Under the pieces are notes generated by a model. That model was not told the origin of the DNA and made no database searches. It saw only the letters and a program-made list of their open reading frames with translations. Made by a program: the position numbers and the translations under genes. Shown here piece by piece: positions 1,493 through 60,566 of a stretch of 64,000 bases of DNA. The first letter of the stretch is position 1, and the number at the start of each line of letters is the position of its first letter. This DNA is from Dictyostelium discoideum (Eukaryota): the NCBI GenBank assembly GCA_000004695.1, contig CM000153.2, positions 3,680,001-3,744,000 on the forward strand, given 5' to 3'.

Positions 1493-2165
1493 ATGACGAC
1501 TTCAAAGAGATCCTTAAAAAGGTCTCTTGAAACTAATGACGATTCTGATTCTGATAATAATAATTTATTAAGTCACTTATTAGAATTGCAATATGATAAT
1601 ATTAAAATAAACGAAAATTGTAATAACAATAATAATAATAATAATAATAATAAAATTAAATATTCTAGCCAAAATGAGGAAAATGGAAATGAAAATGAAA
1701 ATGAAAATAAAAATGAAAATGATAGGTACCAAAAAAAGAGAAAAATTATAAATTCACCACCAAAACCAAATTTTGAGCAACAACAAGCACCACCACAATC
1801 AAATATCCCATTTAGTACACCTAAGAAATTGGAAAATTCAAATAGTTATTTTAAAAGTTTTACACCATTTAAATCAAGGTTTTCAATATTACCAAATGGC
1901 AATAATTTTGGTGGTAATAATAATAATAATAATAATAATACCAACACCAATGGTAATAACAATAATAATAATGAAAATAATAATAATTTAATTCTAAAAA
2001 GTTCAAGTAAAAAATCAATTAAAACTCAAATTGAAAACGTTTATATCCCAGAATCACCATTTAATATAAAACTTAAAACTAATAAAATCATACCATTAAA
2101 ATCACTATCTCAATCACAACAAAATGTTTCAAACAGTCCAATTAAATCATCGAAAATACCTAATA

Positions 2166-2197
<32 letters not shown>

Positions 2198-2336
2198 GAT
2201 AACGATGAAGAAGATATTGATAAAAAATATTTCACAGAAAGTGATATGAAAGATGCAACTAATTTCTTAAATACTGAAATTTATAATACAACAATTAAAT
2301 TTAATATTAATAATAATGATACTGATAATAGTAGTA

Positions 2337-2371
<35 letters not shown>

Positions 2372-3887: not shown

Positions 3888-3920
<33 letters not shown>

Positions 3921-4021
3921 TGAATGAAAAAATGGAAAAATCTTCAAAATTATTAGAAAGAAATGTAATTGAAAAAATTGATTTTATAAATAAAACCTTC
4001 CAAATTACACCTATTGGGTAA
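1493..4021 (+). CDS. Hypothetical poly-N/Q-rich protein of 842 aa, intronless. It has conserved-looking blocks (LPWDINIPVFQHEEFKHQWMKQRWLSWYESF..FYLLNGLEFSILFL and a C-terminal Cys-containing block).
   Basis: A single uninterrupted 2.5-kb ORF in roughly 20% GC DNA. Non-repetitive blocks are interspersed with (AAT)n and (CAA)n-encoded homopolymers. I cannot assign a family. Confidence 0.6.
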
Positions 4022-4226
4022 ATTAAAACATAATTAATTGATGACTTTTTTTTATTTTTTTTATTTTTTTTTTATTTTTTTTTTTTTAAGCAAATCTTTT
4101 TTAATTTTTTATTTTTTATTTTTATATTTAATTTTTTATTTTTTATTTTATTTTTGCAATTATTATTATAAATAATATTATTTATTTATTGCTTTTCGAT
4201 ATCATTTTATTGTAATTAAAAAACTA

Positions 4227-4279
<53 letters not shown>

Positions 4280-4633
4280 TGTATTAAACCACACGAATTT
4301 ATGTATAATTATACTTGCCGCTTTGTAAAATTTTCATATTGTTTAATAGTGTGTATTAAAAAATATTAAAATTAATAATATTTTAAAAAGGTAAAATGTC
4401 TCTTTTATAAAACACACCATTTTATCATAATTTGGTGTTTTACTCCCATAAAATAATAATTTTTTGTGTGTGTGGGTTTATACGTATATGGTGTTGCGTT
4501 TAAATAAAATAAAAAATAAAAAAAAAAAAAAAAAAATAAAAAAAATAAAAAAAATTAAAATAAAAAAAAAAAAAAAATAAAAAAATTATGTGTGTAAAAT
4601 AAGCTTCTAGATGCTCTTTGTTACTAATTAATT

Positions 4634-4664
<31 letters not shown>

Positions 4665-4830
4665 CTAAATTTTGAAATTTCCAACTTGAAATGGAATATA
4701 AATTAAAATTTTTTATTTTATTTTTTTTAATTTTTATATAATATTAATTTTAAAACAATACAACAAATATATTCTCTATATTTTTTTTTAGTGTTTATAA
4801 AACATTCATAATAGAAATAAAGAAATCAAA

Positions 4831-5211
4831 ATGTCTTTTTCAAATGTAGGTTTTTAAAATAATTTATATTTTTCTTTTTTAGAAATAAAATTATTAAAAT
4901 ATTAATTATTTTTTTTTTATTATTTTATATTTTATATATAAAAAAAAAAAAAAAAAAAAAATTATTATTAATATTCTCAGAGTTTAGCTAGATTTGCAAT
5001 CATTTCAAAAAATAGTGGATCAAATGCAAAATATTTACAATACTATCCAGTACACAAATTTAATAAAATGCAATACAATGAAAAGCAACAACATATGAAA
5101 TTCCAAAAAATTTCAAACCCAGCTCCTCCTCAATCCAAATTTAATAAACAAAACACAAATAGCACTCATTTAAATACAAACTCTAATTACTTAGTTGTTG
5201 ACGATGCTTAA
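4831..5211 (+). CDS. Possible small two-exon gene (exons 4831..4845 and 4981..5211) encoding MSFSN|SLARFAIISKNSGSNAKYLQYYPVHKFNKMQYNEKQQHMKFQKISNPAPPQSKFNK...VVDDA (about 82 aa).
   Basis: A 15-nt first exon is followed by a GTAGGT donor and a 135-nt AT-rich intron ending TTCTCAG. An open frame of 77 codons is unusual in this AT-rich context. I recognise no homology. Confidence 0.25.
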
Positions 5212-5967
5212 AACATAAAAAATTATATTAAACAATTATATTTTATATTTTCGATTTTAAAAAATAATAAAAATAAAAATAAAAAAAAAAAAAATAAAAA
5301 AATAAAAAAATAAAATAATAATAATATATAATAAAATAATTTTTTTTAAATAAATAGATTTGCATCTATTTATTTTTAATTTAATCAACAAAAAAAAATA
5401 AAAATAAAAAAAAAAAGGTTATTTCAAAATAAAAAAAAAAAGTAAATTATTTTCACAACTATTTTTAAGTATACTATGAGGTTTAAATATTTTTTTTTTT
5501 TAAAATTTGATAGATTATTAAATTGTTTGTAAGAAACCCAATTTATTTTTATTAAATTTCTTGCTTTGGTTTTATTTTAAAAATTATAAAAAAAAAAAAA
5601 CAAACACAACTCCTCCCTAAAAAAAAATTATTAGAAAAAAAAAAAATAATAAAAAAAATTATTTGTTTTGGAATCCATGAGGAAAAATAAAATTTACAAA
5701 ACAATTTACAAACTTGTAAAAGAGTGGTGTGTGTGTGTGAATGTCAAATAAAGAGGTATGAATGTGTTTTTAACCCATTTACAAATTTTCTTTTTTTTTT
5801 AATTAATTTAATTATGAGTAAACATTTGCTATTTGTAAAAAATAAATTCCATTTTGGTTTATTTTATTTTTATATTTTTTTTATTATTTAATATTTTTTT
5901 ATTTTTTATTTTTTATTTTTTATTTTTTATTTAAATAACAAATAATAAGACCATTAAAATATCTTTA

Positions 5968-7620: not shown

Positions 7621-8402
7621 ACTAATTTTATATATATATATTATTTTATTTATGCGTGTGTGTGTATTATTATTGTTATGGTATTACTTTTTTATTATTA
7701 TTATTATTACTATTATTATTTTATATGGCTATAATGTTATAGTTTTATTTATATTTATATATATATTATATTAAATAAATGAGTCGTTTTGAATTATATA
7801 AAAATTTTTTTTTTTTTTTTTTTTTTTATATACTGTTTTTATTATTTTATTTTTTTTATTTTATTTTTCAAAAAATAAATATTATATTATTATTTTTTTT
7901 TTTTTTTTCAATTTTTATAAAATTTTAAATGTTTTTTTTAAAATATATATATTTTGTATTGTTACTTTATTTATTATTTTTAAAAGATATTTTTTTATTT
8001 TTTTTTTTTTGTGGGGGGTGTTTTTTTTTTTTTCTTTATATGTTTTTGTGCATACAGTTCATAAAAAAAATGAAAATTGACTTGAAAAATTATTTTCATT
8101 TTTTTTAATTTTTTTTTAATTTTTTTTATTTTATTTTTTTTTATTTTTTTTTTTTATTTTTTTTTTTTTTTATAAAAATCTGTGTGTTTTTACAACCCTG
8201 TATTTAATTTTTTTTTTTTTTAAAAAACAAAATTAAAAAAATAAAAAAAATAAAGATATACGTATATCTGTGTGTGTGGTAATTTTTCGATTTGTTAATT
8301 TTAAAAAATAAAACAAAATTAAATTAAATTAAAATAAAATTAAATTAAAATAAAATAAAAATAAAAATAAAATAAAAATAAAAATAAAAATAAAATAAAG
8401 CA

Positions 8403-10416
8403 ATGGATGAGGCTGATGGAATTATCTTAATTACACTCAAAGATTTAGGATGGTAAATATCCTCACTTTTTCTTTATATATTAATCAATAATAAATTAAC
8501 TAATAATTTCTATTAATTTTTATTTTATTTTATTTTAAAATTTATTTAATAGTGAAATTGAAGAAAATGAAACAATTAAAAATTTTGATTCAGAGATGGT
8601 ATATAAATGTATTTTAGCATATTTAAGAGTTATTAATGAACAAAAAGTTATAAATTTAACCAATACATTACCAAAGAATATGTCAGCACGTGTTAATGCA
8701 TGTTCATTGATTGCCAATATTATAAAAGATAGTGGATATAGATCAGAGTTGTCATATCATAATTTATTATATCCAAATGTTAATGATATTAGAAAGATCT
8801 TTATATTTTTAGGACAATTATTACCAAAGAAGGAAGTTGAAAGTGGTGGTGTTAGCATTCAAAAATTGGAAGACCAAATATGTCAATATCTTCAAGGATG
8901 CGTTAAAGAATCATGGATACCTTATTTTTGTCCATTTTCAAAACGTATACCAGGTAATTACTCAACAGCAACTCTATTCACAACCACAGGTGGTAATCTT
9001 AGAATTCCATCACGTGGTCGTCAATTAAAGGTGACACCTGGATTGGAGCAATACTATAGCCAATATTTAGAACCATTAACATTACAAACCAATCGTTTCG
9101 AAGATATTGCACCATCAGTTTTCGAATATAATCTATCGATTTATGCAGAAGCACAAGAACGTGATAATGAATGGAATGATAAAGGTGTAAGCTCTGGTAT
9201 GAATCCAATTGATTATCGTAAGAATAAACAAAAACAAGTTTTATCAAAAATGAATGATTCAATTCGTCAATCCATCATTGATGGTGGAAATAATCAAATT
9301 AGTAGTAATTGTAATAGTGGTGATAGTTTTCTTGATATTATCTCTGAATTTCGTGGTAATTCATTAGATGTTGGTGGTCAATTTAATAGAAAGAAAGCAT
9401 TTACAAATGAATTAAATAATAATAATAATAATAATAATGATAGCACTACCAACACCAATAAAGTTGAGACAGAAATCGAAACAGAAGAACAAAGACAATT
9501 AAAACGTCAAGCTGAAATTGATGCATTACAATCACAAATTGATGAAATTTCAGAATCAATTCAATTACATAATAAAGAGATGTTAGATTTCTTATCATTG
9601 ATGCGTCAATCAGAGAGTGAAAATCTTGAACAAGATCAACAACGTGAAGTATTGGAGAAACAATATAAAATCAAAAAGAAGACATTCTCATTATTGGATG
9701 ATGCAGAGGGTAACATGAAAGAACTTCAATCACTTTGTAATCAAACCTCATCCAATCTATTGGAAATGTCTGGTGAATGGGAGAAGGTTCGTAAACCAAT
9801 CATTGAGAAATACCGTTCACTAAAGGATAAACAAAATAATCAAGCAGATGAAACTAAATCCAAATTGGATCGTATTAAAGAGATGAGAATATTGATAAAG
9901 AAATTGGTTAGTGAAGTCCAACAAAAGGATGACCAATTCCAACAGTTACAAGATCAATATAAACAAGCTCCAAAAGATTCAAATCGTTCACAATATACTC
10001 GTCGTATATTGGAAACTGTGAAAAATATAAAGAAACAAAAAGTTGATATCGATAAAGTACTATTGGATACTAAAAACTTACAAAAGGAAATCAATACCAT
10101 CACAGATACCGCCGTTCGTACCTTTGAATTGGTTAAAGATTTACTCTACAATGATGCTAAAAAGGATCAAACCGCCAAACAAGCCATTAAATCATTTGCC
10201 ATCATTGATGATAAATTCCAAAAACTCTTTAAAACTATCGATGAAACTGGTAACTTTCAAAATAATATTCTCAATCTTAATTCAAAGATTGAACATGTAT
10301 CTCAAAAAACAAATACTCTTAATTCTGATCGTGTAGTTCAAGATCTTAAAAATATTAAATCTGAAAATCAATCTTTAATTAAACAAATTAAAACTTTAAT
10401 AGAAACTAAAAATTAA
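8403..10416 (+). CDS. ccdc22: CCDC22 homologue (coiled-coil domain-containing protein 22, a CCC/Commander complex subunit). Exon 1 is 8403..8452, exon 2 is 8553..10416.
   Basis: The spliced N-terminus MDEADGIILITLKDLGC-EIEENE...VYKCILAYLRVINEQ...NMSARVNACSLIANIIKDSGYRSELSYHNLLYPNVNDIRKIFIFLGQLLP aligns to the human CCDC22 N-terminal domain (MEEADRILIHSLRQAG...MSARFRLAMSLAQACMDLGYPLELGYQNFLYPSEPDLRDLLLFLAERLP). The C-terminal half is a long coiled coil, as in CCDC22. Intron: GTAAAT...AATAG. Confidence 0.85.
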
Positions 10417-15619: not shown

Positions 15620-16444
15620 TTAAGCAGTAGCGTTTAAGTTGAAGATGAAAGAGGTATTATCATCTTGAACAGTATCCATATTTGGTGGGAAAGTTTCTAC
15701 TGGTTTTCTAATTGAAACTTGACCAGTTGATGGATCATATTTGAAATAACAACTACCATTTGCAACCTAATTTTTAAAATAAGAATATTAATATTATTTT
15801 TTTTTATTTGTTTAATAAAATTTTTAAAAAAAAAAAAAAAAATTCTTACATATACACCGGTTCTAGTATCACGCACAGCAACTTGAGTAACAATTTCTGA
15901 ATCAGCTGGTGAGAGTTGTGGAATTGGCATTTGAACGAAATCATCTCCATCACGGCAAACAACTTGTGGGACACCAAATGGAATTAAGGTCATTTCATAT
16001 GATCCGACTGGTGTATTTGCAATATTATCAACAATCTTAACATCAACTGCCCATTGGAAATCACCTGGGATGACTTGGAACTTAGATAAACCATTAATTG
16101 AGGTTAAATCATTGTTGGTGCTACCTTGAGCTAATTGTTCATATTTACCTGGAGTTGGGGTATCTATAAAATTTTTTTTTTAAAATTAAATAATAAATAT
16201 AATAATAAATAATTTTGAAAAGAGAATATAAAGATAATTATGAAATCTTATTTTTCAACATACCAATTTCATTGTGTTCCCAAATGTTACATTTGACACT
16301 TGCACCGACAATACATGACATGAATTTATCATTCCATTCATCACCATAGTTGAATCTTACAGTTTCACCTTCATCATACTCGAATGATTCACCAGTGCAG
16401 TTTTTGCCAAAGAAGAATTTAACTTTTGTTGGAGCTACAGACAT
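15620..16444 (-). CDS. DdCAD-1-like Ca2+-dependent cell-cell adhesion protein (gp24 family; cadA or a close paralogue). Exons: 16444..16264, 16163..15850, 15766..15620.
   Basis: [60 protein letters not shown]...[30 protein letters not shown]...[15 protein letters not shown]...[13 protein letters not shown]...[11 protein letters not shown] matches the DdCAD-1 sequence as I recall it (beta/gamma-crystallin-like N-domain plus Ig-like C-domain). The length is about 213 aa. Introns are GTATGT.. and GTAAGA.. with consensus AG acceptors, and phases are consistent. Confidence 0.8.
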
Positions 16445-17021
16445 TTTGAAATAATTTGTTTGAATTGATAAATTTGATTTGTATTGAAACTTAATGTTTA
16501 TTGATTTGATTTTAAAAAAAAAAAAAAAAGGTCCTTTTATAGTTTTTTTTTTTAAAATAAAAAATAATTATTATTTTATTTTTATTAATAAAATATAAAA
16601 AAAAAAAAGAAAATTTAATTTAAAAAAAAAGAAATTCAAATAATATTGTAAGATCTTTCTAAAAATTAGAATCTCTATTGGGGGAGTGATTGAATTTGTA
16701 CAAAAATAAAATTAATTAAACACCCAAAAATTATTTTAAATAAAAATCCCCCATAAAAATTGGTTTTATTTTATCCATTAGTGAATTTTAGTGCCCAATA
16801 AAATTTTAAACATTTATTTTTTAATTAAATTTTTTTTTTTTTGGTGTAAAAAAAAAAAAAAATTAAATCTGATTTTTTTTTTTTGTCCAATAAAAAAAAA
16901 AAAAAAAAATTTTTGCTCAATTATTAAAAAATCTATGAACGTAAAATGTTAAAAACATCCAAAAAATAAATTGATTGAAAATGGTTATCGGGGTAATTTT
17001 AGTTTGTTAATTAATTGGCCA

Positions 17022-21202: not shown

Positions 21203-23163
21203 ATGGCAACAAATATATCAACATCACCAAAAGAAGATGTTCCAAAAGAAAAATTTCATTTAGATAGTAGTGTATTTAAATAAATAAATAAAATAAAATA
21301 AAAAATAAAAATAAAATAAAATAAAAATAAATAAAATAAATATTAATGATTATTTATTAATTTTAATTTTAATTTTAAAAAGTTTTAAATTTTTCACAAA
21401 CATCACAAATTCAATTTGGTTTAAGATTACAAGATTATAAAAAGTATAGACAATATTGTAGTAAAAGAATTCAACGTTTAAGAAGTCAATTAAGAAAACA
21501 ATATGGTAAAAAGAATTATGTTAATAAGATTGTACTTAATGGTGGAGAGACAGAAAAACAAATTAATGATGTTAGATATTTACAAATTTCATTATTAAAG
21601 ACTGAAAGGGCATGGAGTTATGCAATGGATTTGAAAGCACAATTTGAAAAGGATAACGATTCACGTATTGGTTTTCATATGAATAGAAGATTTGGTAAAG
21701 CATCAAGAAATTCAACACAACTCTATGAACTTTGTAAATTGGTAGCTGATCAATATACAATCATCGAGGCACATGCTTATTCCTCTTGGATGGCATCATC
21801 ATTGTCATTGACTAAACAGGATTTCAAAAAGGCATTAGAAGAAATCAACATTTCAAAAACAATTTATGAAAAACTCTCTGAACAAGGTGACCATTCTCAA
21901 AAAGAATTATATCAAAAAAGAATTGAAGAAACTGAACCAATCATTAGATTTTGTTTATATAATCTTAAAAATGAAAAGAATACTTCTAATAAAGTTTCAC
22001 AAAATACATTAACAATTATTGAACAATCTTTAGAAGAATTAAAAAATCAAGAAAATAAAAAGAAATCGTCAACTTCTTCAACTACTACCACTACCGCTAC
22101 AACAACAATTGAATGGAAATCAAAATCAATTAAAGTTGATGAAAAACTTGATGAAAAATTAAAAATATTTAATGAATTTAAAAAAGAGAATGAAAATAAA
22201 TTACCAAAGAATATTAATGCATCAATTGATACAACATCAAATATTTCACCAATTTTCAATATTTATGATAAATTGGTTTATAATTTAATCAATTGTGAAA
22301 CCATTGTAAAGAATGATCTATCAACATTGGTTAGAGTAAACTTAAAGAATAAATCGGTAAAGAGTGAAATTGAAGAACAATCAACTAGAATACTCTTGGC
22401 CTACATTATGTATCATAAAATGAAGTATCTCTATGAGAGAAATTCAATTTTAATCACAATGATGCAAAGAGTATTGGATGGTGAAAAGGTGGATGAATCT
22501 GCAATTAAAAAGAAAGTTAAGAAAGTAACTTGGAATGATTTGGTACGTTTATCAACTCATCAAGTTAAAGTCTATACAATCATGAGTGAAAGTAGGGATA
22601 CCGATTCAAATAAAGAGATTGCAAGAGACCAAGATGCTCAGCTAATCCTATTGAAATCTATTAGACTCTATTATATTGCAGTTTGTTTAGCTAAATCTTT
22701 GAAATTCTCTGAAACTATGGCTGTATTGGATAGAGTACTTACAAACATTCAAAATGTTCGTAAAACCAATACTAAAAATCAACAAATTCTTAATGATACA
22801 AATGAATTGGAATCAAATATAAAGAAACAAAGATCACAAATTCATGCAAACTCTTTCATTCAACAATTGTCAGAGAATCAAGATTTAAAAAATCAAATGT
22901 CTTCTTTATCAATTGGTGGTATTACCACTGCCTCTGGCAAATCAAATGATTTAATCTCTGGTTTAGATTCATTCGATACCTCTTTCTTGACTGAAAAGAA
23001 ATTGGTTCAATTACCACCACAACTTCAACCTGTTCAAGCCAAACCAATCTTTTTCGATTTAGCTTTCAATAGTGTTACTTTCCCATCATTAGATCAAAGA
23101 AAGAAAGGTAGTTCAACTGGTACTCCTTCAAAAGGTTTATTTGGTTTTTGGGGTAGAGGTTAA
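21203..23163 (+). CDS. srp68: Signal recognition particle 68-kDa subunit (SRP68). Exon 1 is 21203..~21269 and exon 2 is 21383..23163.
   Basis: After splicing the sequence reads ...LNFSQTSQIQFGLRLQDYKKYRQYCSKRIQRLRSQLRKQYGKKNYVNKIVLNGGETEKQINDVRYLQISLLKTERAWSYAMDLK..KTIYEKLSEQ...EPIIRFCLYNL. This tracks human SRP68 ([41 protein letters not shown]...LLVLMDAERAWSYAMQLK...CKTIYEKLASAF..ISPNIRYCAYNIG). The exon-1 donor could be at 21266 or 21269. Confidence 0.85.
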
Positions 23164-23416
23164 AATTTTTTAATTTTAAAAATAATAATAACTAAAAATA
23201 AAAAAATAAACAATTAACCATAATATTAAAAAAAAAACATTAAAAAAATTAAATAATTAAAAATTTAAAAATAAAAAAATAAAAAAAAAAAAAATGGAAA
23301 AGAAAAATCCATTTCTTGTCGGTTGGTTTTGATTAAAAGATTAAAAACTGTTTTTTTTTTTTTATTTTTTTATTTTTTTTTTTTATTTTTAATTTTGTGA
23401 TTAAAAATTTTGTTTT

Positions 23417-23456
<40 letters not shown>

Positions 23457-23535
23457 TAAAGTTTGCATTGTTAATAACCCCTATTCGGATTATTACAAAA
23501 TTAAATAAAATAAATAAAATTTTATATAATGTATA

Positions 23536-25269
23536 ATGGCTTCACAATATACTAAATTACAATCAATTGAGGTTGAGGATAATTTATTATTACCCTATCA
23601 AGTTTCAAATCCGACACAAAAGAAATCACAAAATAAATTTGCATCTTATTTTTATAGAGTGTAAAATTATTTACCTACAAACAAAAAAAAAAAAAAACTA
23701 AATTTTTCCATATTTCTATGCGCATATTAATTTTTTTTTTTTTTTTTTTGCACTAATTATTATAATTTTTTAGAAAAGGATACATAATAAAGAAATGGAA
23801 AATTTTATTATTATTAATGTTTGTATTATTATTAATTGCTGGTGTTATTTTAATTCCAGTTTTAGTTTTAAGATGTAAGTTTAAATAATAATAAAAATTA
23901 TTATAATATGTAAATTTACATATTAACCAATTGTTATTTTTATTATTAAAAAAAAAAAAAAAAAAAAAAAAAAGATAAAACATCAACAATATCGGATCAA
24001 TGTGATGAATATGGTAAAGAGATTATTAATAATGCAGTACAAAAAGGTACAGAAGCATATAGTAGATTATCAACATTGGTAACATTATTTCCAGGTAGAT
24101 TATCAGGTAGTGAACAATTAGAGAATGCAATCGATTGGATACAAGATATGATGTTAGATGATGGATTTGATTTAGTTAAAACCGATGATGTTGAAGTTAC
24201 ACATTGGGTTAGAGGTGATGAAAGTGCAACTATTTTACAACCATACCATAGAAAAATGAATATGTTGGGATTGGGTGGATCAATTGCAGGTAATGTTACG
24301 GCAGAGGTTATTGTAGTATCAAGTTTTGATGAATTGGATACACTTCAAGATCAAGTTAAAGGTAAAATAGTATTATTCAATGCAATTTTCACCAACTATT
24401 CATCCACTGTTCAATATAGAAGTGGTGGTGCATCTGCAGCCGCAAAATATGGTGGTGTTGCAGCATTGGTTAGATCTATTACACCCTACAGTTTAGGTAC
24501 ACCACATACTGGTGTAATGTTTTATCAGGATGGTATCGACAAAATTCCAACTGCTGCCATTACATTGGAAGATGCAGATTTAATTCAAAATTTAGCAATA
24601 TTGAATCAAACAGTGATTGTAAATTTATATATGGAAGCACAAACTATGCCAACTAATGCAATCAGTAGAAATGTTATGGCACAAATTAATGGCTCCACTT
24701 ATCCTGATGAAGTGGTTGTAATTGGTGGTCATACAGATTCTTGGGACGTTGCACAGGGTGCAATGGATGATGGTGGTGGTATAGTTGTCGCATGGGAAGC
24801 ATTAAGATTAATAAAATCATTGGGTATCATACCAAAGAGAACTATTAGAGTAGTGGGTTGGACAAATGAAGAAAATGGTGCCGCTGGTGGTGCTGCTTAT
24901 GCTCAACTCTATACCAATGAAACTTTCTTCTCTATTGAATCTGATATTGGTGTAACTCAACCATTAGGTTTCAATGTTATGGCATCAGAACAAACTATCA
25001 CTGATTTACAATTGATCGCTGATAAAGTTTTATCACCAATTAAAACAACTTCAATCGTAGAAGGTGAAGTTGGTACTGATAATGGTTTCTTGGTTTCAAA
25101 TGGTAAACCTGGTGCTCAATTAATCACTGATGAATCAAAATATTTTTGGTATCATCATACAGCTGGTGATGCTATGGATAAAATGGACCCTTCTCAAATG
25201 AATCAATGTGTTGCTGCAATGGCAACAATGGCATTATGTATTTCAAATTGGGTTGGTCAATTAAATTAA
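23536..25269 (+). CDS. Carboxypeptidase Q / plasma glutamate carboxypeptidase homologue (M28 family). Model: 23536..23660, 23774..23874, 23975..25269. Alternative start at the ATG at 23817 in exon 2.
   Basis: The mature region VTLFPGRLSGSEQLENAIDW...TAEVIVVSSFDEL...IPTAAITLEDA...GGHTDSWDVAQGAMDDGGG...WTNEENGAAGG...WYHHTAGDAMD aligns with human CPQ (PRLSGSKNLEKAIQ...GHLDSWDVGQGAMDDGGG...WTAEEQGGVGA). A TM/signal anchor (KKWKILLLLMFVLLLLIAGVILIPVLVL) lies in exon 2. A 5' exon (MASQYTKLQ...FYR) joins in frame through a GTAAAA...TTTTTTAG intron. Confidence 0.8.
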
Positions 25270-29395: not shown

Positions 29396-29917
29396 ATGAC
29401 AGAATCAACATTAATTTCAACAGAAATAAATTCAGATTTATTCAAAGATATTAAAAAGATTAGATATGATGTTTTTGTAATTGAACAAGAATGTCCAGAA
29501 GAAGAGGAATGGGATGAATATGATGAAAAAGCAAAACATCTTTTATTAAAGATTAATGGTGATTCAGTTGGATGTGCAAGATGGAGAAAGATTTATTATC
29601 CAGATTATCAAGGTAATATGGATTGTGATGTTATAAAGATGGAAAGATTCGCAGTATTAAAACAATTTAGAGGTAAAAACTATGGTAAAGAATTGGTTAA
29701 AAAAGTAGTTCAAGAAATTTACCAAAAAACAAACATTGAACAAAACACTGATTATCCATTATTCATGATTAATGCTCAACAATATGTTGAAAAATTTTAT
29801 CAATCACTTGGTTTTGAAACTGATAAAAATATTCCAATCTTTTATGAAGCTGGTATTCCACATGTCCGTATGATCATTCCAAAAGATACTATAAAAAATT
29901 TATATTTTTCAAATTAA
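29396..29917 (+). CDS. GNAT-family N-acetyltransferase, 173 aa.
   Basis: A single ORF. The segment FAVLKQFRGKNYGKELV resembles acetyl-CoA-binding motif A (Q/R-x-x-G-x-G/A). It is divergently arranged with RPF1 across a 260-bp AT-rich spacer. Confidence 0.7.
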   Translation: MTESTLISTEINSDLFKDIKKIRYDVFVIEQECPEEEEWDEYDEKAKHLLLKINGDSVGCARWRKIYYPDYQGNMDCDVIKMERFAVLKQFRGKNYGKELVKKVVQEIYQKTNIEQNTDYPLFMINAQQYVEKFYQSLGFETDKNIPIFYEAGIPHVRMIIPKDTIKNLYFSN

Positions 29918-29983: not shown

Positions 29984-30356
29984 ATGACATATTAAAAAAA
30001 ATTTTTTTTTATAAATTAATAATTTCAATATTATTTATCATTATTGATATTATATTTTTTTTAATTTTTTTTTCTTTATATCCATGAAAGTCAATTATCA
30101 AATAATTTAATTAACCTTTAAAAGTTTTTTTTTTTTTTTCAAAGTTAAATTAAATTTTGTACTTTATGAATTCATTTTTTAAATGGGTCTTATATTTTTT
30201 TGTTATAAAGTAGAAAAATATTTTGAATTTTTTTGATCATTATTTATAAAAATCTTAAACAGACGATAATAATAAAATATTTTTTAAAAAATATTACTAA
30301 AAATTCCAGTATTTGATTTTATTTTTTTCGGTATTTTTACAAAAATTTTCATGTGA

Positions 30357-30446
30357 GCCCGTGTCGTATAGTGGTTATTATATCTGTCTTGTACTTAGTA
30401 CCAAAGCGATAACAGAGGGTCCTCAGTTCGATTCTGAGCTCGGGCA
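30357..30446 (+). tRNA. tRNA gene with a 17-nt intron in the anticodon loop. The anticodon is tentatively UGU (Thr) if the intron sits at the canonical 37/38 position.
   Basis: Folded by hand. Acceptor stem GCCCGTG/CTCGGGC with one U-U mismatch. D-arm GTAT-AGTGGTTA-TTAT. Anticodon stem TCTGT/ACAGA. Loop CTTGTA + intron CTTAGTACCAAAGCGAT + A. Variable loop GGGTC. T-arm CTCAG-TTCGATT-CTGAG. Discriminator A. The isotype needs tRNAscan-SE. Confidence 0.8.
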
Positions 30447-30475
30447 CTTTTCCTCGCAGACAGAATTTCGGTCAC

Positions 30476-30486
30476 AGGTTCGAAGT
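30476..30486 (+). promoter_or_regulatory. Putative external B-box (ex-B, a TFIIIC site), GGTTCGAAGTC, 30 bp downstream of the tRNA.
   Basis: It matches the B-box consensus GGTTCGANTCC. Dictyostelium tRNA genes often carry an extra B box in the 3' flank (established knowledge). Confidence 0.4.
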
Positions 30487-30544
30487 CTGTCTTCAAATAG
30501 TAAAACTATTAATTATTGTATATTCCCTTTAAAGGAACAATGAT

Positions 30545-32066
30545 TAATCAAAGTTTATCCTTTAAACGAATTAATCAACTATTGTAATGATAAAAGAATT
30601 AACGGAATAATTACACTATATGATTTCGAAAAAGCTTTTGACTCGATCTCACACGGTTCAATACTTAGATCACTACAACACATCAACATTCCAACCAATA
30701 TAATCAACCTGATAATGAATCTACTCACCAAATCTGAAGCAAGAATTGAAATTAATGGTAGAACTACTATACCCTTTGAGATCAAAAGAGGAGTTAAACA
30801 AGGAGATCCACTATCACCCACACTGTTCGTCCTTGTAATAGAGGCTTTAGCTAGAAAAATTTTACAAGATGATCGAATTACTGGCCTTCCTCTAAACAAC
30901 AGCAACCACAGAGAGAAATTCCAAAGCTTTGCAGACGACTCGGCTTCAATGGTCCCAGACTCTCAACAACTTGAATTAGTACTACAACACTTCAATTCAT
31001 TTTGCAAAGCCACTTCCTCAAAACTTAACATCGACAAATCTTCATCAATTCTTATAGGCAACCCAGACAATACCAACCAAAGAATTCCAATATCTACAAA
31101 TCCAGAAAGATACTTGGGATACTTCTTCACAGGTAAAGGGATAACAAGAAAAATGCCAGAAATATTAAACACAATAAGATCATCCTTAGTACTATGGAAA
31201 ACCACTGACTCAACAATAAAAACCAAAACCAACATCCTCAAAGCATTCGCACTNNNNNNNNNNNNNNNNNNNNNNNNNNNNNNNNNNNNNNNNNNNNNNN
31301 NNNNNNNNNNNNNNNNNNNNNNNNNNNNNNNNNNNNNNNNNNNNNNNNNNNNNCAAAGAAGATATGAGCAAAGACCCATACTTCTCATGCAAGAAAACAA
31401 AACAATTCATAAAAATAAATAAACTCAAAAATTTCATCTATATTACCACAGGCAAAGGTAAAAACTGGCACCATACAAGAATTAGGCAAAATAACAATTT
31501 CATTAATAGAATAACTCCAAAATTATCACCGACAGCCAAAAAAGATCAAGAAGTGAATGCAGATTACGCCAACCACAGATTCCACAAAGAATACTTTGAA
31601 TGGAACTATAAAGCAATAGACTATGATCTAACCAGATCATTCGCATATAGAAACCTAATGGCCCTTATCCTCCACAACATTTGGATTTGGATTTGCAATC
31701 AAATATACAGTGAAGATCCTTTAACAAATGAATCACTACCATACAGCTCCCTTCTAAAGAAATGGCACAAATTGGCCACTCTAGAATACATCAAAAAAGC
31801 AAAAGATCTGAAAAACTTATCAGCAAAAGACCATAATAATTTCAAAGATCCTAAGATCCTTCTCACCTCAACGACCAAGCTAAGAAAAACAACAGCTAAT
31901 TACTATTGTATTCCAGAATCATCTCTCCCAAATATTATATCTTTTGATCAATTCATATGATTAAAATAACCCTTCAGCTTAAATGATAAGCCTATAAATA
32001 AATATTAAATAAAAACTCGTATTAACACAGATGGACATATATCAATCTTGTTAATCCAATATTAAA
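30545..32066 (+). mobile_element. 5'-truncated TRE3-like non-LTR (LINE-type) retrotransposon copy. It has the C-terminal part of the RT domain, a Cys-His region and a 3' UTR. It begins about 100 bp downstream of the tRNA and contains an assembly gap at 31254..31353.
   Basis: It encodes YDFEKAFDSISH...GVKQGDPLSPTLFVLVIEAL (non-LTR RT motifs) and ...CKKTKQFIKINKLKNFIYITTGKGKNWHH... There is no poly(A); it abuts the next fragment. The position 100 bp 3' of a tRNA gene is the known TRE3 target preference. Confidence 0.75.
31254..31353. other. Assembly gap: 100 N.
   Basis: A run of exactly 100 N, the conventional placeholder for unknown length, inside a repeat copy. Confidence 0.95.
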
Positions 32067-33232
32067 ACCTTATAAAAATCAAAAAAGAATGGGAAAACTA
32101 TGCAACTCAAATTGGACATCTAAAAGATAAAGTTCAAACCCTACAACCAATATTAACAAAAAACCAAACCTCTCAAACATTAACCACAAATAATATTTCA
32201 CTACCACCAACACTCAAAGAAATCTACTCGACAATACTCAACAATCACCAATGCAAATCAAAAGACTATATTGGCAAGAAATATTCAGATCTACTTCTTA
32301 CTTCGCACCAACAATCAATACAACTATTATGGAAATACACATACGACCAACTTTTTGTCAAAATTCAAAAATTAAAAGATCCAAAAGGCCGTGATACAAT
32401 GCAAAGATTCCATGCTAGATGTCTTCCGATTAATCATCTACACAACAAAGTTTGCCCCATTTGCAACAATGAAATGAATAATGATCCCTATGGTCATTTG
32501 TTTTTCAATTGTCAACACACAATCAACTTCATAAACCACGACAAATTAAAATATTTTATATATAAAAATTGCAATGGAAACAAAAACTGGTCACTAAAAA
32601 AAAACCAAACAACAAAATTATACACACTCATTTATAAACCACAAACAAACAACAAAGCATTTAAACCAGATCCAACTATCAATATTAATTTTCATTTTGC
32701 AGAAAACGCACAATATAAAAAATACAGGTTCAACTGGAATTATATAAACACAAATCTTGATCTAGTCAGAACACATTCATATTGGAACATAATCTCATTA
32801 GTTATTCACCAAATATGGATATAGTTATGCAAATCATTATTTGACATCAATATAACTCAATCAATTGATAATTGGAACAACCAAATAAACAACACAACAC
32901 TAGATTATGATATATTAAAATCAAAATGGCACAAGCCAATAAGATTGGAATATTCAAGAACATTATCAAACTTTAACCAATACTCAATTAAAAACAACCT
33001 CACAAAAACTCAAAAAGAAACCCAATGGTCCGAAACAATCAAAAAATTTAAAAAAGAATGGAGCATAAACACTAATGAACCAATTCCAACAATTACACCA
33101 CCAATTAATTATTAATTACCTAATCTAAAATAACATACCATTTTAAATTCACAAAAACTAAAAAACCTAAAATAAATAAATAAAAATAACATACTAATTG
33201 TATACTACAATAGTTTATTTATAAAAACCGTC
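32067..33232 (+). mobile_element. Second, divergent TRE3-like retrotransposon 3' fragment (ORF2 C-terminal Cys-His domain plus 3' UTR).
   Basis: ORF 32399..32824 encodes HARCLPINHLHNKVCPICNNEMNNDPYGHLFFNCQHTINFINHDKLKYFIYKNCNGNKNW, paralogous to LHNKQCPLCKEDMSKDPYGHLFFSCKKTKQFIKINKLKNFIYITTGKGKNW of the other copies, so it is a different subfamily. Confidence 0.65.
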
Positions 33233-33271
33233 CTGGATAAAAATTCTCTTTGAAGAAAAAGTGCCCAAATA
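33233..33271 (-). other. Remnant of a tRNA 3' end plus trailer (GGGCAC + TTTTTCTTCAAAGAGAATTTT) in minus orientation.
   Basis: Its reverse complement matches the last 7 nt of the tRNA and about 30 nt of the trailer of the tRNA copy at 37164 (gggcactttttcttcRaagagaatttt). Confidence 0.45.
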
Positions 33272-33597
33272 AAAACCAACAGAATCACACTTCATTTGGT
33301 TAAAATTATAAATTATTGTTTATTTCCTTTAAAGGATAAACTAAGATTAATCAATATTAAAAAAAAAAAAAAAAAAAAAAAAACCAACCATAGATTGAAA
33401 AACATCATATACGCTAATCTTAGATTACACAAAAAATTTACTTTCAAAACTTATTGTATTCCAGAATAGGTGCTTCCAAACATAGTCTCATTGGGCCAAT
33501 TCATCAAACTTATTACAATTTATTTAATTTTAAAACATATTTAAAAACTAGATAAAAAATCAAATAAATTAAAAAATAATATCAAAAAAAAAAAAAT
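33272..33597 (+). mobile_element. Two short retrotransposon 3'-end fragments, each ending in poly(A): 33272..33385 and 33386..33597.
   Basis: The first ends ...gattaatcaatattaa(A)23. The second contains a homologue of the TRE3 ORF2 C-terminus and UTR (cttattgtattccagaata...caattcatcaaactt...) and ends in (A)13. Confidence 0.5.
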
Positions 33598-33746
33598 AGA
33601 GTAATCGTAGAGATATGTTTTTAAAATTTTAATGCCTTTTTTTGAATTGGTTAATGCAATTGTAAGTTGCTTCTCCTTGAGATATGTTTTCTCATTTTAT
33701 TTAAAGGTTTTTATGAAACCTTTTATTTAATGAATACAAACAAATT

Positions 33747-33826
33747 CACACATTTCTTGGTCATTTTGGTCCACTGTTTGAATGGAGTTTGATCTTTGGC
33801 TATCATTTAATGAAAATGGAGAGCTA
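33747..33826 (+). repeat. Copy 1 of an ~80-bp dispersed repeat (cacacatttcttggtcaYtttggYcca..gtttgaatggagtttgatctttggctatcatttaatgaaaat.gag.gcta). Copy 2 is at 60487..60566.
   Basis: About 90% identity over 80 bp between the two loci. The flanks are unrelated. Confidence 0.7.
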
Positions 33827-34648
33827 ATTAAAGATTTATTATCTCTTGATTTGATTGAACTGATGCTTTGGATTGATTCTATTAAAAATAATTTTTTATT
33901 AGAAAAAATTTTTATTCTTTTTTTTCTTTTTTTAATAAAAAATATTTACTGAATAACATTCTTTGATATTTGTAGTTTTTTAAAAAAAAATTTTTTTATT
34001 TTTATATTTTTTTAAACCTATTTATACTTTTTTTTATAAAAAAATTTATGCTTTTAATTTTTTTTCTTTTTTTTTTTTTCTTTATTTTTTTCTTAATATT
34101 AGAATATTCTAATATTTCATAAGTTTTTTTTTTAAGAATTTTGATTTTAAATATTTTATAGATAACTGGATATTTAAAGTCTGAAGTGAAGGTATTAAAC
34201 ACTTTTTTAAATGAAAAGTAAAAAACATGTTTTTAAAATATTATTAAAATGTCATATTTTATTAATATTATAAAAACAAAGATTCTATTCAAAAATTTAA
34301 ATATTTTAATCTATAATTAGAGTCTAACTAAACAATTTTTTTTTTCATTTGTGGTGTTTTATTTTATTTTATTCTTACCAATATTTTGTTTGAGGTTATT
34401 ATAATATTATTTTTATATTTAAGTGGAAATATGTAATTGGTAATTTTTATTGGTTGATTTTTAAATATTATCGATATATTATGGTAATTATTTATTATTT
34501 TATTTTTCTTTTATTTTTTTTAAAAGATTTAGTTTTGTGATATTCAAGGCGAATACTTTGAACTATTTTTTTTTTTTATAAAATTAATTTGGTTAAAATA
34601 CAATTTCAATTTTACTATTCTTTTTTTTTTTTAATATTGATTAATCAA

Positions 34649-34690
<42 letters not shown>

Positions 34691-35434
34691 TGGATTAACA
34701 AGATTGATATATGTCCATCTGTGTTAATACGAGTTTTATTTAATATTTATTTAAAGGCTTATCATTTAAGCTGAAGGGTTATTTTAATCATATGAATTGG
34801 TCAAAAGATATAATATTTGGGAGAGATGATTCTGGAATACAATAGTAATTAGCTGTTGTTTTTCTTAGCTTGATCGTTGAAGTGAGAAGGATCTTAGGAT
34901 CTTTGAAGTTATTATGGTCTTTTGCTGATAAGTTTTTCAGATCTTTTGCTTTTTTGATGTATTCTAGAGTGGCCAATTTGTGCCATTTCTTTAGAAGGGA
35001 GCTGTATGATAGTGATTCATCTGTTAAAGGATCTTCACTGTATATTTGATTGCAAATCCAAATCCAAATGTTGTGGAGGATAAGGGCCATTAGGTTTCTA
35101 TATGCGAATGATCTGGTTAGATCATAGTCTATTGCTTTATAGTTCCATTCAAAGTATTCTTTGTGGGATCTGTGGTTGGCGTAATCTGCATTCACTTCTT
35201 GATCTTTTTTGGATGTCGGTGATAATTTTGGAGTTATTCTATTAATGAAATTGTTATTTTGCCTAATTCTTGTATGGTGCCAGTTTTTACCTTTGCCTGT
35301 GGTAATATAGATGAAATTTTTGAGTTTATTTATTTTTATGAATTGTTTTGTTTTCTTGCATGAGAAGAACAGGTGACCGTATGGGTCTTTGCTCATATCT
35401 TCTTTGCAGAGTGGGCATTGTTTGTTGTGAAGGT

Positions 35435-35534
35435 NNNNNNNNNNNNNNNNNNNNNNNNNNNNNNNNNNNNNNNNNNNNNNNNNNNNNNNNNNNNNNNNNN
35501 NNNNNNNNNNNNNNNNNNNNNNNNNNNNNNNNNN
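35435..35534. other. Assembly gap: 100 N.
   Basis: 100 N inside ORF2 of the minus-strand TRE3 copy. Confidence 0.95.
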
Positions 35535-35690
35535 GGTGTGCTTGTGTTGCGTCGGCGTTGAGTTCATTGACTATGGTTATTGCCAATGAGTTTGGGGGGG
35601 GGGGGGATTTGATAAAGTCTGTTTTGTTTTTGAAGGAGGTGTCAGTGCCCCAACCTCTGACATTCCATTGGTTGATTTTGATTACTACCA

Positions 35691-36944
35691 TTATGAGATG
35701 ATATCGATCTCCTCTTGGGAGTCGTATAGCTGCGGTTTGGATGGTGAAGGGTAGATACTCTCTATGAAGCTCTCAATGATTCCTTTCCTTTCTTTATTGA
35801 CAGGTGTCTTAGGGGTGGATGGGATGTAAGGGTTGCTTCTGTTTATTGTTGGTGAGAGTTGGGTGACCTCGTTGTTTGAGTGGATTTCCTCGTTCTTGCG
35901 TTTATGTGATGGAGGGATGTTTGGTGTCTTCTCTCTGTTTTCCGAGGATGAATGGATGTTAGTGCTCGTTTTGTTGGCATTGTCTTTTTGGATGGCGTTG
36001 GATGTTGTGGTAGTGGTTGTGGTGGGTTTGACAGATTGAGATTCTGCTTGGTTTTTGGGGGGAAGAGGTTGAGAGGACTTTTTTGATTGGGCTTTTTTCT
36101 CATGGGTTGATTGTTTATCAGACTTATTGTTTGCTGGGTTGTATGTTTGTTGTTGTGGTTTTGGTTGAGAGGATTTGATTGCTATCCTGTTTTGGATGTT
36201 GGGAGGATCATCTGTCATCTCATCTTCTAATGGTTCTTCCGTGTTGTTTGACTCTACTTTCTTATTTTTCTTTTGTGAGGAGTAGGTTTTGGTGGCCGTT
36301 CTGATGGTAAAGTTGGCGATTTCTGTATTGTGTTGGCCAGATTTCATTTGATCGCCTATTTTGCATTCTATTAGACCGAATACTAGGAGGTGGTCGGTGG
36401 AGTATATAGTATGGTATATTGCATAGGGTATTTCTTCTGCAAAGGCAGTTTTGATGAGGGCATCCACTATTCCTGCCTTTTCTCTTGGAATTCTTACTCT
36501 TCCTGTGAGGACGTGGTAGTCTCTACTGGAGGTGATGAAGGTTCCCAATTTGCTTCTATCTCTAATGATATTTAGGAGAGATTGTTCGTTTTTAATCATC
36601 AGGTGGATCGTTTTTCTAGTTCCTTTGCCTATGTATATCTTGTCGATTGGGATATCGTAGTTTGAGAGTGTTTTTCTCATTTCTTCTAACCCCATGAGAT
36701 CCATTTTGGGGAATTCGAGTGTAATTGGGTAGAATCCGTTGTTTTTCTCGTAGGTTGAGAGAGCAGTCATGTTCAATATGGTCTCGCAGTATTTGGAGAT
36801 GTCTTTGAGGCCTATTGATAATTTGGGGTAGGTCTCCTTTATCTCTGCTGTTTTTGTGGAGAATTCCTTAATGAAGTTCTCTGATGCCTCGTCCATATGG
36901 GTGGAGGGGTTGGCCATTTTAGCCGCGTCTGCGTAGGAATTCAT
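35691..36944 (-). CDS. TRE3-like retrotransposon ORF1 protein, 417 aa.
   Basis: An uninterrupted ORF immediately upstream of the ORF2 start. Its C-terminal half is rich in basic residues and Ser/Thr/Pro. Confidence 0.65.
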   Translation of the reverse strand: MNSYADAAKMANPSTHMDEASENFIKEFSTKTAEIKETYPKLSIGLKDISKYCETILNMTALSTYEKNNGFYPITLEFPKMDLMGLEEMRKTLSNYDIPIDKIYIGKGTRKTIHLMIKNEQSLLNIIRDRSKLGTFITSSRDYHVLTGRVRIPREKAGIVDALIKTAFAEEIPYAIYHTIYSTDHLLVFGLIECKIGDQMKSGQHNTEIANFTIRTATKTYSSQKKNKKVESNNTEEPLEDEMTDDPPNIQNRIAIKSSQPKPQQQTYNPANNKSDKQSTHEKKAQSKKSSQPLPPKNQAESQSVKPTTTTTTTSNAIQKDNANKTSTNIHSSSENREKTPNIPPSHKRKNEEIHSNNEVTQLSPTINRSNPYIPSTPKTPVNKERKGIIESFIESIYPSPSKPQLYDSQEEIDIIS

Positions 36945-37163
36945 CTCGATGGGATTCCTTTGAATCGGCGATTTGGTAAATTAGATCTGTAGATCGTGGT
37001 GGATTGGTGATTTTTTTTGAAAGATTGGTTAAAATTGACCGAGATTAAGGATAGAAAAGGATGAATTACTTTTCACGTGTATCTTGTATCCTCTTGATCG
37101 CGGTGCGGTTTTTCAAAAACAAAACGACTACAACAATAATCAAAATTCTCTTCGAAGAAAAAG

Positions 37164-37253
37164 TGCCCGAGCTCAGAATCGAACTGAGGACCCTCTGTTA
37201 TCGCTTTAGTACTAAGTACAAGACAGATATAATAACCACTATACGACACGGGC
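37164..37253 (-). tRNA. Second copy of the same intron-containing tRNA gene, in inverted orientation. It differs from copy 1 by a single C-to-T change inside the intron.
   Basis: The reverse complement is identical to 30357..30446 except intron ...GTACCAAAG... versus ...GTACTAAAG.... The 3' trailers are similar for about 30 nt and then diverge. Confidence 0.8.
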
Positions 37254-37913
37254 TCACATGAAAAATTTTGAAAAAATACCGAAAAAATAAATTAAAAAAT
37301 TGAATTTTTAGTAATTTTTTTTTAAAAAATATTTTTAATAAATATACTATTATTGTAAAATATTTTTATTAATTAATTAAAAAATTTGAAAATTAAAAAT
37401 TATATTTTTCAATATTTTTAATTTTCAAATTATTTAATTAATTAAAACATATGTTCAAAGTGAATTTGTCATTTGATTTAAAAAATTTTTTTTTTTTATA
37501 TATTATTATTATTTTTTTTTTATAATAGAGTTTTATTAGGTTTAATAAATTTTAATAATGAAAATAAAATATAAAAAATCAATCATCTTAAGTTGTCGAT
37601 AACTTTTTTTTTACTATAACCAAAATGAGTTTCATTATTTGAAAAATAAAAAAAAAAAATAAAAAAAAAATTGAAATTAATATTTTCACACCCCACAAGG
37701 TGGTAAGCAATGTATTGGAAATTTTTAATTTTTTTTTTTATTTTTTATTTTTTTTTTTTTTCATTTTTTTTAATTTTAATATAACCCTCACGTTAGATTT
37801 ATACTTTATATAATTATACTACTTTTTTTTTTTTAAATTATTATTATTATTATCATTATTTTTTTTTTACACAAAAATATTTTTATATATATATAAATAA
37901 ATAATAACACAAA

Positions 37914-60354: not shown

Positions 60355-60486
60355 AGAGGGAGAGAGTGAGAAATAAAAAAAATAAAAAAATAAAAAAAAA
60401 AGAAAAAATAATATGTTATATTAAAATAAACAAATAATAAAATTTTTTTTATTTTTGTGTTTATTATAATCTACACATTTTTTGAT

Positions 60487-60566
60487 CACACATTTCTTGG
60501 TCACTTTGGCCAACAGTTTGAATGGAGTTTGATCTTTGGCTATCATTTAATGAAAATTGAGTGCTA
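60487..60566 (+). repeat. Copy 2 of the ~80-bp dispersed repeat (see 33747..33826).
   Basis: About 90% identity to copy 1. Confidence 0.7.

Follow-up and report, generated by a model that had tools for sequence, protein, structure and literature searches.

The spacer between two convergent tRNA-Thr(UGU) genes on chromosome 4 of Dictyostelium discoideum AX4 has very probably been hit repeatedly by TRE3 elements, non-long-terminal-repeat (non-LTR) retrotransposons that target tRNA genes. The pair occupies positions 30357 to 37253 of the window analysed, a stretch of 64,000 nucleotides (nt) of contig CM000153.2 (assembly GCA_000004695.1, positions 3,680,001 to 3,744,000) that has 22.5% G+C and contains two gaps of 100 N (31254-31353 and 35435-35534). 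Coordinates are those of the window unless another locus is named. Between the tRNA genes lie at least six TRE3 copies or fragments, and the TRE3-type 3' ends of the window are of four different kinds, with A tails (TRE3-A and families that we call X, Y and Z). The initial annotation, made from the sequence alone, had read this locus as an inverted tRNA pair bracketing TRE3-type elements, a single safe haven that had been hit repeatedly. The four 3' ends and an extra copy that is polymorphic between strains uphold that reading.

The elements are placed as expected of TRE3. Eight copies were examined beside a tRNA gene, and each has the orientation of that gene. Their distances agree with the range known for TRE3, some 40-150 bp downstream from the tRNA gene (14-228 bp seen for TRE3-A): the starts lie at +50 and +118 in the window, at +80 and +91 in a gap-free assembly of a near-isogenic strain, at +99 for a full-length relative and at +40 and +65 for copies of family X. 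The initial proposal that placement reflects the known TRE3 target preference is thus supported by the literature and by the independent copies found at tRNA-Ser (99 nt) and tRNA-Val (40 and 65 nt) genes. This type of structure is already known, as integration of TRE3 in tRNA orientation 40-150 bp downstream, use of an external B box (ex-B) and tandem stacking have all been published (PMC5911963, PMC5006619), and the locus itself lies in an annotated reference genome.

The tRNA-Thr pair and its flanks

According to ARAGORN, the 64-kb window contains two tRNA genes and no more; both are tRNA-Thr(UGU) genes, located at 30357-30447 on the plus strand and 37163-37253 on the minus strand. With intron reporting, the program placed a 17-nt intron at gene position 38 of both copies, i(38,17), which is the canonical intron site (between positions 37 and 38, one base 3' of the anticodon). 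The Rfam tRNA model, run with the fast filters relaxed, scored 47.7 bits on 30357-30446 relative to a gathering score of 29, and its alignment of copy 1 contains an insert of 19 nt where the model has 2. Because of the intron, an Rfam search of the whole window at the gathering threshold and with default filters gave no hit and missed both tRNA genes. The sole difference between the copies is an intron base, C at 30402 and T (on the gene strand) at 37208. Both copies therefore have the cloverleaf, the anticodon and the intron site of an intron-containing tRNA gene. Two near-identical genes at 30357..30446 (plus) and 37164..37253 (minus), with a 17-nt intron harbouring a single C/T difference, had been annotated initially. 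ARAGORN and Rfam confirm the genes, and the intron call and the sequence comparison confirm the intron and its variant base. Rejection of the tRNA calls, named beforehand as an outcome that would speak against the annotation, did not occur, and the calls stand.

Similarity continues past the genes, with 30274-30468 matching 37335-37143 at 91.9%. The repeated unit thus consists of the tRNA gene, about 80 nt on its upstream side and 20-45 nt on its downstream side. The pair is convergent and lies between an acetyltransferase gene (29396-29917) and the BAR-domain gene DDB_G0285851 (37914-38712, two exons). The features of the tRNA regions are the following.

30274..30356, plus strand: flank upstream of tRNA copy 1, belonging to the duplicated unit (91.9% match to the copy 2 side)
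30357..30446, plus strand: tRNA-Thr(UGU) copy 1 (tRNA1), intron 30394-30410, variant base C at 30402 (ARAGORN, Rfam)
30477..30487, plus strand: candidate ex-B box GGTTCGAAGTC, the window's sole match, 30 nt past the tRNA gene
37114..37163, minus strand: 50-nt flank from tRNA copy 2 to the TRE3-A 5' end, with a decayed ex-B box TGTTGTAGTC (91 nt in the gap-free assembly)
37164..37253, minus strand: tRNA-Thr(UGU) copy 2 (tRNA2), intron 37200-37216, variant base 37208 (ARAGORN)
37254..37335, minus strand: flank upstream of tRNA copy 2, belonging to the duplicated unit (inverted-repeat match)

TRE3 can use an external B box (PMC5911963). The putative ex-B box proposed initially some 30 bp after copy 1 was recovered as GGTTCGAAGTC at 30477-30487, exactly 30 nt past the gene. 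It is the only match to the B-box consensus GGTTCGAANCC at no more than one mismatch in 64 kb. As about 0.5 such matches are expected by chance, this count is not significant, and the argument is one of position: the sequence match lies downstream of the tRNA coding region at a spacing, a few tens of bp, that is expected of an ex-B box. The decayed version next to tRNA copy 2 has the same offset, and B-box-like motifs are found at the equivalent offset in a wild D. discoideum strain and in Dictyostelium firmibasis.

TRE3-A copies beside the tRNA genes

A full-length relative of the elements next to the tRNA genes, at a locus from another assembly (L001, 7832-13064), served as reference copy. 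It comprises 5233 bp before its A tail and two open reading frames (ORFs), ORF1 of 417 and ORF2 of 1234 amino acids, and its start is 99 nt downstream from a tRNA-Ser gene of equal orientation. The ATG of ORF2 overlaps the ORF1 stop codon (TAA) by 1 nt, in the -1 frame. A weak Exo_endo_phos match (residues 8-253, E=0.0017, below Pfam's cut-off) precedes an RVT_1 domain (residues 524-771, E=1e-33) in ORF2, and a Cys/His motif, CPLC...H...C, is found near its C-terminus. The order of two ORFs, endonuclease, reverse transcriptase (RT), zinc finger and oligo(A) tail is that of a non-LTR TRE3 element, the endonuclease match being weak. The segments of this family in the window are listed below.

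30565..32067, plus strand: TRE3-A copy A1, 5'-truncated in the RT domain (reference position ~3184), A4 tail (99% to L001 11009-13064; RVT_1 E=2.7e-21)
34651..35434, minus strand: TRE3-A 3' part, A35 tail, assembled as the end of the tRNA2-side element (99.5% to L001 13092-12312)
35535..37113, minus strand: A2', 5' part of a full-length-type TRE3-A with 5' untranslated region (UTR), ORF1 and the start of ORF2 (98.8% to L001 9410-7832)

By homology to the reference, the elements start at 30565 (+118 from tRNA1) and at 37113 (+50 from tRNA2). The initial annotation had an element about 100 bp 3' of each tRNA gene in the orientation of that gene; the orientation is correct, but the distances differ from this figure, and the starts are not at 30545 and 37060. 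The first N gap (31254-31353) conceals about 0.6 kb and the second (35435-35534) at least 2.9 kb. ORF1 of the window (minus strand, 35691-36944, 417 amino acids) has numerous relatives, all of them from D. discoideum, and over its last 359 residues it matches DDB_G0285951 without a difference, sharing even two distinctive substitutions. ORF2 starts in the -1 frame at 35691 and shares 1 nt with the ORF1 stop codon. The 3' parts at 31354-32067 and 35406-34682 are inverted repeats with 98.5% identity. A deletion was also observed in the former, which is devoid of 11 bp (31381 region) present at 35368-35378 and in the reference copy; it frameshifts the zinc-finger region of ORF2, yielding KDPYFSCKKT instead of KDPYGHLFFSCKKT.

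From its length, abundance and behaviour, we infer that this main family is TRE3-A. In Table 1 of PMC5006619, TRE3-A ranks as the most abundant and has a consensus length of 5229 bp, TRE3-B one of 5279 bp and TRE3-C one of 4734 bp. A -1 frameshift is stated to be required for TRE3-A (PMC5911963). The L001 copy agrees in length (5233 versus 5229 bp) and in its -1 frame, while the window copy is broken by an N gap. The family also resembles TRE3-A in its two ORFs joined in the -1 frame, in the endonuclease-RT-Cys/His order of ORF2 and in its oligo(A) tail, and we found no departure from the description of TRE3-A, the window copies being incomplete (one 5'-truncated, both interrupted by N). TRE3-A, a tRNA gene-targeted retroelement of the 3' type in D. 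discoideum, is reportedly described by Szafranski in 1999, Glöckner in 2001 and Spaller in 2016. None of the database relatives found by homology searches and in the cluster listing is named TRE; all are 'hypothetical protein'.

Other TRE3-type fragments in the spacer

Three further families of TRE3-type 3' ends, X, Y and Z, were identified with the help of a comparison locus (L002) that harbours two copies of X and one of Y. The fragments, a tRNA remnant and the spacer proper are as follows.

30491..30552, plus strand: Y1, old TRE3-type (Y) 3'-end stub between the ex-B box and A1 (matches 33290-33354)
32068..33227, plus strand: family X, second TRE3 family, 5'-truncated, A5 tail (98% to L002 9050-10205 and 17269-18372)
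33228..33266, minus strand: remnant of a tRNA-Thr 3' end and its downstream flank, 39 nt (33237-33266 matches 37139-37168 at 93%)
33290..33383, plus strand: Y2, third TRE3-type family 3' end, A25 tail (33328-33377 98% to L002 14172-14221)
33384..33596, plus strand: Z, fourth TRE3-type family 3' end, A13 tail (peptide likeness to TRE3-A)
33597..34620, no strand: AT-rich spacer without likeness to TRE; the wild strain conserves 34121-34480 (wild-strain comparison)
34621..34650, minus strand: Yb, 18-nt Y-type 3'-end stub with A12 tail, directly after the A35 tail (97% to L002 14182-14214)

The C-terminal part encoded by family X shows 36% amino-acid identity to the C-terminus of TRE3-A ORF2 (E=1e-52). 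Both L002 copies of X start downstream of tRNA-Val genes, at 40 and 65 nt, and in the orientation of the tRNA. The Y copy of L002, the only other Y copy examined, ends in an ORF2 tail with 77% DNA identity to TRE3-A; no tRNA gene was found upstream of it. Family Y has at least two 3'-UTR variants. Y1 aligns to 33290-33354 with a score of 76, compared with a mean of 32 and a maximum of 54 for shuffled sequences, and it is overlapped by an inverted Y-like piece (30541-30566) with 96% identity to the Y 3' end (L002 14172-14197). The peptide of Z, ...YCIPE*VLPNIVSLGQFI, resembles the end of TRE3-A ORF2, ...YYCIPESSLPNIISFDQFI. Thus, X, Y and Z are, like TRE3-B, TRE3-C and TRE3-D, relatives of TRE3-A with A tails, and X also occurs downstream of other tRNA genes in the same orientation.

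Poly(A) runs are present at 33359-33383 and 33584-33596 and, as T, at 34621-34632 and 34651-34685. The annotation of at least two subfamilies with poly(A) tails of their own, together with 3'-end stubs, is therefore well founded, with four different 3' ends. The description of the whole zone of 32.07-34.7 kb as packed with TRE3-like fragments applies to 32068-33596 and to the 30-nt stub at 34621-34650, but not to the spacer of about 1 kb at 33597-34620. Within that spacer, one member of an 81-nt direct repeat was noticed (33746-33826, 92.6% identical to 60486-60566). Neither an Rfam match nor a folding signal nor a long ORF was found for the repeat, and it is missing from the orthologous spacer of the wild strain. 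As for the tRNA remnant at 33228-33266, we considered 5' transduction or a tRNA/TRE chimeric retrocopy as its origin and rejected both, since its orientation does not fit. A third candidate origin is a piece of the Y 3' UTR.

An insertion polymorphism in a gap-free, near-isogenic assembly

The orthologous locus of assembly GCA_054883475.1 was located via the acetyltransferase and BAR genes, in two overlapping pieces (L003 and L004) that were joined as a 35,967-bp composite. Its left flank differs from the window by one substitution and seven homopolymer-length differences over 11.1 kb, and the 4.08-kb middle block shows no substitutions. This near-absence of substitutions indicates that GCA_054883475.1 is near-isogenic with AX4. 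Most likely, it is the AX2-214 Nanopore/Illumina assembly of PRJNA1300491, AX2-214 being the only near-AX4 strain in that project (PMC12745789).

The gap-free assembly contains an extra, 5'-truncated TRE3-A of 3.26 kb (L003 11132-14393) that corresponds to reference positions 2003-5262, has an A27 tail and starts 80 nt past tRNA1. Both of its ends are bordered by ATTATTGTATATTCC, a perfect direct repeat of 15 bp, i.e. a target-site duplication, whose single copy forms the empty site in the window.

30512..30526, plus strand: empty target site ATTATTGTATATTCC, which flanks the extra TRE3-A in the gap-free assembly

Judged by these sequences, the extra TRE3-A is a real insertion polymorphism, because a misassembly could not yield an exact empty site. 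A strain-specific TRE3-A with a perfect target-site duplication is direct evidence of repeated integration at this locus.

The TRE3-A proximal to tRNA2 is also a different copy in the two assemblies (window 35535-37163, composite 22752-24417). Its 5' end lies 91 nt past tRNA2 in the gap-free assembly versus 50 nt in the window. The 41-nt flank difference is bounded by a TGAAA microhomology, and those 41 nt occur nowhere in the window. The first 1.58 kb of the copy show 47 evenly spread differences (97.1% identity). Possibly, an additional, younger TRE3-A has inserted at +50 in AX4, the older copy being hidden in the second gap; alternatively, a deletion plus conversion may have occurred in one lineage.

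Orientation of the middle block

The block between the two N gaps is inverted in the gap-free assembly, window 31354-35434 matching composite 19825-15751 at 99.85%, and window 34651-35434 is identical to composite 15751-16528. In the gap-free orientation, the 5' part of A1 is joined to the 3' part found at 34651-35434 in the window, and 31354-32067 belongs to the other, tRNA2-side element. X, Y2 and Z then stand in tandem behind the tRNA2-side element, in the orientation of tRNA2. Among the three assemblies compared (window, gap-free and wild strain), the window has the odd orientation, and its block 31354-35434 was probably misoriented by a scaffolding error. Two weaker points agree with such an error. 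In the gap-free orientation, the frameshifted 3' part belongs to the copy that is older and more diverged (98.2% to the reference, with ORF2 cut to 1054 amino acids), and two Y-stub pieces that share an 11-nt direct repeat flank A1.

A real inversion, in which the 4-kb middle segment was turned round in the AX3/AX4 lineage by homologous recombination between inverted TRE3-A copies, would have an adequate substrate in the 98.5% identical inverted TRE3-A sequences that bound the block on both sides, and the laboratory lineages do differ here by other real events (the extra copy with its duplication and the different tRNA2-proximal copy). Nevertheless, both breakpoints would then coincide exactly with the two 100-N gaps, and the block is free of base substitutions relative to the gap-free assembly. 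Furthermore, the gap-free orientation agrees with that of the wild strain, which has no TRE3-A repeats, and it is the one that puts the frameshifted 3' part on the older copy and the halves of the Y stub around A1. We therefore consider a real inversion unlikely. That all three differences between the assemblies (the extra TRE3-A, the tRNA2-side TRE3-A and the 4-kb inversion) are real and arose since the laboratory lineages separated is a quite improbable combination. If it were true, TRE3-A would be actively retrotransposing in laboratory strains, and the convergent pair would be a hot spot where new insertions make inverted repeats that drive rearrangement.

The ancestral locus and probable concerted evolution of the tRNA genes

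In a diverged wild D. discoideum strain (L005, GCA_054859385.1), the flanking genes are 2.5 kb apart and enclose a convergent tRNA-Thr pair (7915-8004 and 9149-9238) with 1.15 kb between the genes. The small spacer of this locus contains orthologs of the window spacer, of Z (L005 8466-8540) and of Y2 (L005 8558-8635). Their order and orientation are those of the gap-free assembly, Y2 and Z being oriented like tRNA2. The wild strain has a short TRE3 fragment of its own adjoining tRNA2. A partial tRNA-Thr 5' half was also seen at L005 9493-9530. A first tRNA search was empty for L005 and for locus L006, where ARAGORN with intron detection (-i) finds intron-containing tRNA-Thr genes; for genes of this kind, an empty result of that first search is not to be read as absence.

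The order in D. firmibasis (L007) is acetyltransferase gene, tRNA-Thr (plus strand, 7719-7808), a 1.17-kb spacer, tRNA-Thr (minus strand, 8980-9069) and BAR gene. No TRE3-A-like sequence is detectable in the spacer between these tRNA genes. The same spacer (L007 7809-8979) harbours several tRNA-like fragments with B-box-like motifs, e.g. GAGTTCGAACCCC and GATGTTCGATTCCC. Conservation in D. firmibasis indicates that the tRNA pair is older than the split between the two species, dated to 50-100 million years ago (PMC12745789).

The exons are identical in all six tRNA-Thr copies from the three genomes (window, wild strain and D. firmibasis). The introns are specific to each genome and common to both paralogs: CTTAGTAC(C/T)AAAGCGAT in AX4, CCAAGTACTAAAGCGAT in the wild strain and CCTAGTACTAATGCGAT in D. 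firmibasis. Over a 210-nt unit that includes the flanks (window 30267-30476 and 37134-37343), paralogs within a genome are 80-85% identical and orthologs 62-75%. Since variants are genome-specific yet shared by paralogs, and since the flanks are more alike within than between genomes, the near-identity of the pair appears better explained by gene conversion between old inverted copies, i.e. concerted evolution, than by a recent duplication.

These data bear on a different history of the locus, in which a recent inverted segmental duplication copied the tRNA gene together with a TRE3-A, so that the elements flanking the pair are duplicates of each other. The near-identical tRNA genes, their 92% identical flanks and the 98.5% identical 3' parts of the elements would all fit such an event. 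However, one element is truncated in the RT domain whereas the other has a full 5' end, their start distances are unequal (+118 versus +50 or +91) and the homology of the tRNA flanks stops before the elements. Moreover, the tRNA pair is present without any TRE3-A in the wild strain and in D. firmibasis, and concerted evolution accounts for the near-identity of the pair. A recent duplication is thus highly improbable.

Probable repeated integration into a shared target zone

Repeated integration by TRE3 would account for the locus in the following manner. According to the literature, TRE3 recognises tRNA genes via the B box and the ex-B box, presumably through bound RNA polymerase III factors (TFIIIC/TFIIIB). 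Integration would then occur by target-primed reverse transcription, a few tens to about 150 bp downstream and in the orientation of the tRNA. Convergence would open the downstream target zones of both tRNA genes into one spacer, and for this reason TRE3 would land there repeatedly. Each new copy would insert at a fixed distance from the B box or ex-B box, between the tRNA gene and the previous copy, displacing earlier arrivals outward, so that the oldest fragments (Z and Y) would come to lie innermost and the youngest TRE3-A copies beside the tRNA genes. In the AX4/AX2 lineage, the oldest layer would be Z and Y2, common to the wild strain, X would be the next, and TRE3-A the youngest, including the lineage-specific copies. 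The spacer would have grown in this manner from about 1.15 kb to more than 13 kb.

Tandem stacks of TRE elements at one tRNA gene have been reported (PMC5006619 supplement, note to Table S2, Spaller et al. 2016). The present locus resembles them in its sequential head-to-tail stacks, the newest copy being nearest to the tRNA. It differs in that two convergent tRNA genes share one spacer and two stacks grow toward each other, creating long inverted repeats.

Several observations weigh against repeated TRE3-A integration as the full account of the window. The 39-nt remnant at 33228-33266 lies between X and Y2 and is antisense to X, Y2 and Z, which simple stacking does not explain. A clear target-site duplication was found only for the extra copy of the gap-free assembly; none abuts A1 or A2 under either orientation of the block, and the sole candidate for these copies is a direct repeat of 11 nt, TGATTAATCAA, whose displacement is 13 and 3 nt. 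At least 3.5 kb are concealed by the two N gaps, leaving the structure of the window incomplete. Finally, the name TRE3-A is based on length, abundance and behaviour.

Among other tRNA-targeting elements, TRE5-A shares the element class, the ORF2 domain order and the targeting of tRNA genes with the elements described here. TRE5 inserts about 50 bp upstream and in opposite orientation (PMC5911963), unlike the window elements, which are downstream and in the same orientation, and the upstream flanks (30003-30356 and 37254-37625) contain no element. LTRs, inverted terminal repeats, integrase, tyrosine recombinase and transposase were not found in the elements, in which Pfam detected only RVT_1 and Exo_endo_phos. 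The characteristics of LTR, DIRS and DNA transposons (Skipper, DGLT-A, DIRS-1, DDT) are therefore missing, and a better fit to a family that does not target tRNA genes, the second outcome named beforehand as adverse to the initial annotation, did not materialize. That the elements come from a family without a preference for tRNA 3' flanks (TRE5, DIRS-1, Skipper or DDT) and lie near the tRNA genes by coincidence is almost inconceivable, as nothing was found in favour of this other than the equal ORF2 domain order of TRE5, whereas position, orientation and the missing LTR, terminal-repeat and recombinase features speak against it, as do five further copies elsewhere with the same downstream, same-orientation placement.

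Significance of the locus

The locus is a clean, multi-layered example of the safe haven that the regions downstream of tRNA genes offer in a gene-dense genome. Its points of interest are modest, namely the probable misorientation and hidden sequence in the reference, the recent movement of TRE3-A and concerted evolution in the tRNA pair. Here, the AX4 reference seems to contain a misoriented 4-kb contig, and its two gaps hide at least 3.5 kb, which matters for analyses of transposable elements and tRNA genes that rely on coordinates. Recent activity is far better documented for TRE5-A than for TRE3-A. The empty and filled sites in near-isogenic assemblies, with a perfect duplication at the latter, are direct evidence that TRE3-A has recently moved, and they point to retrotransposition in one laboratory lineage. 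Lastly, the tRNA paralogs appear to evolve in concert, including their introns and flanks, across up to 13 kb of retroelements.

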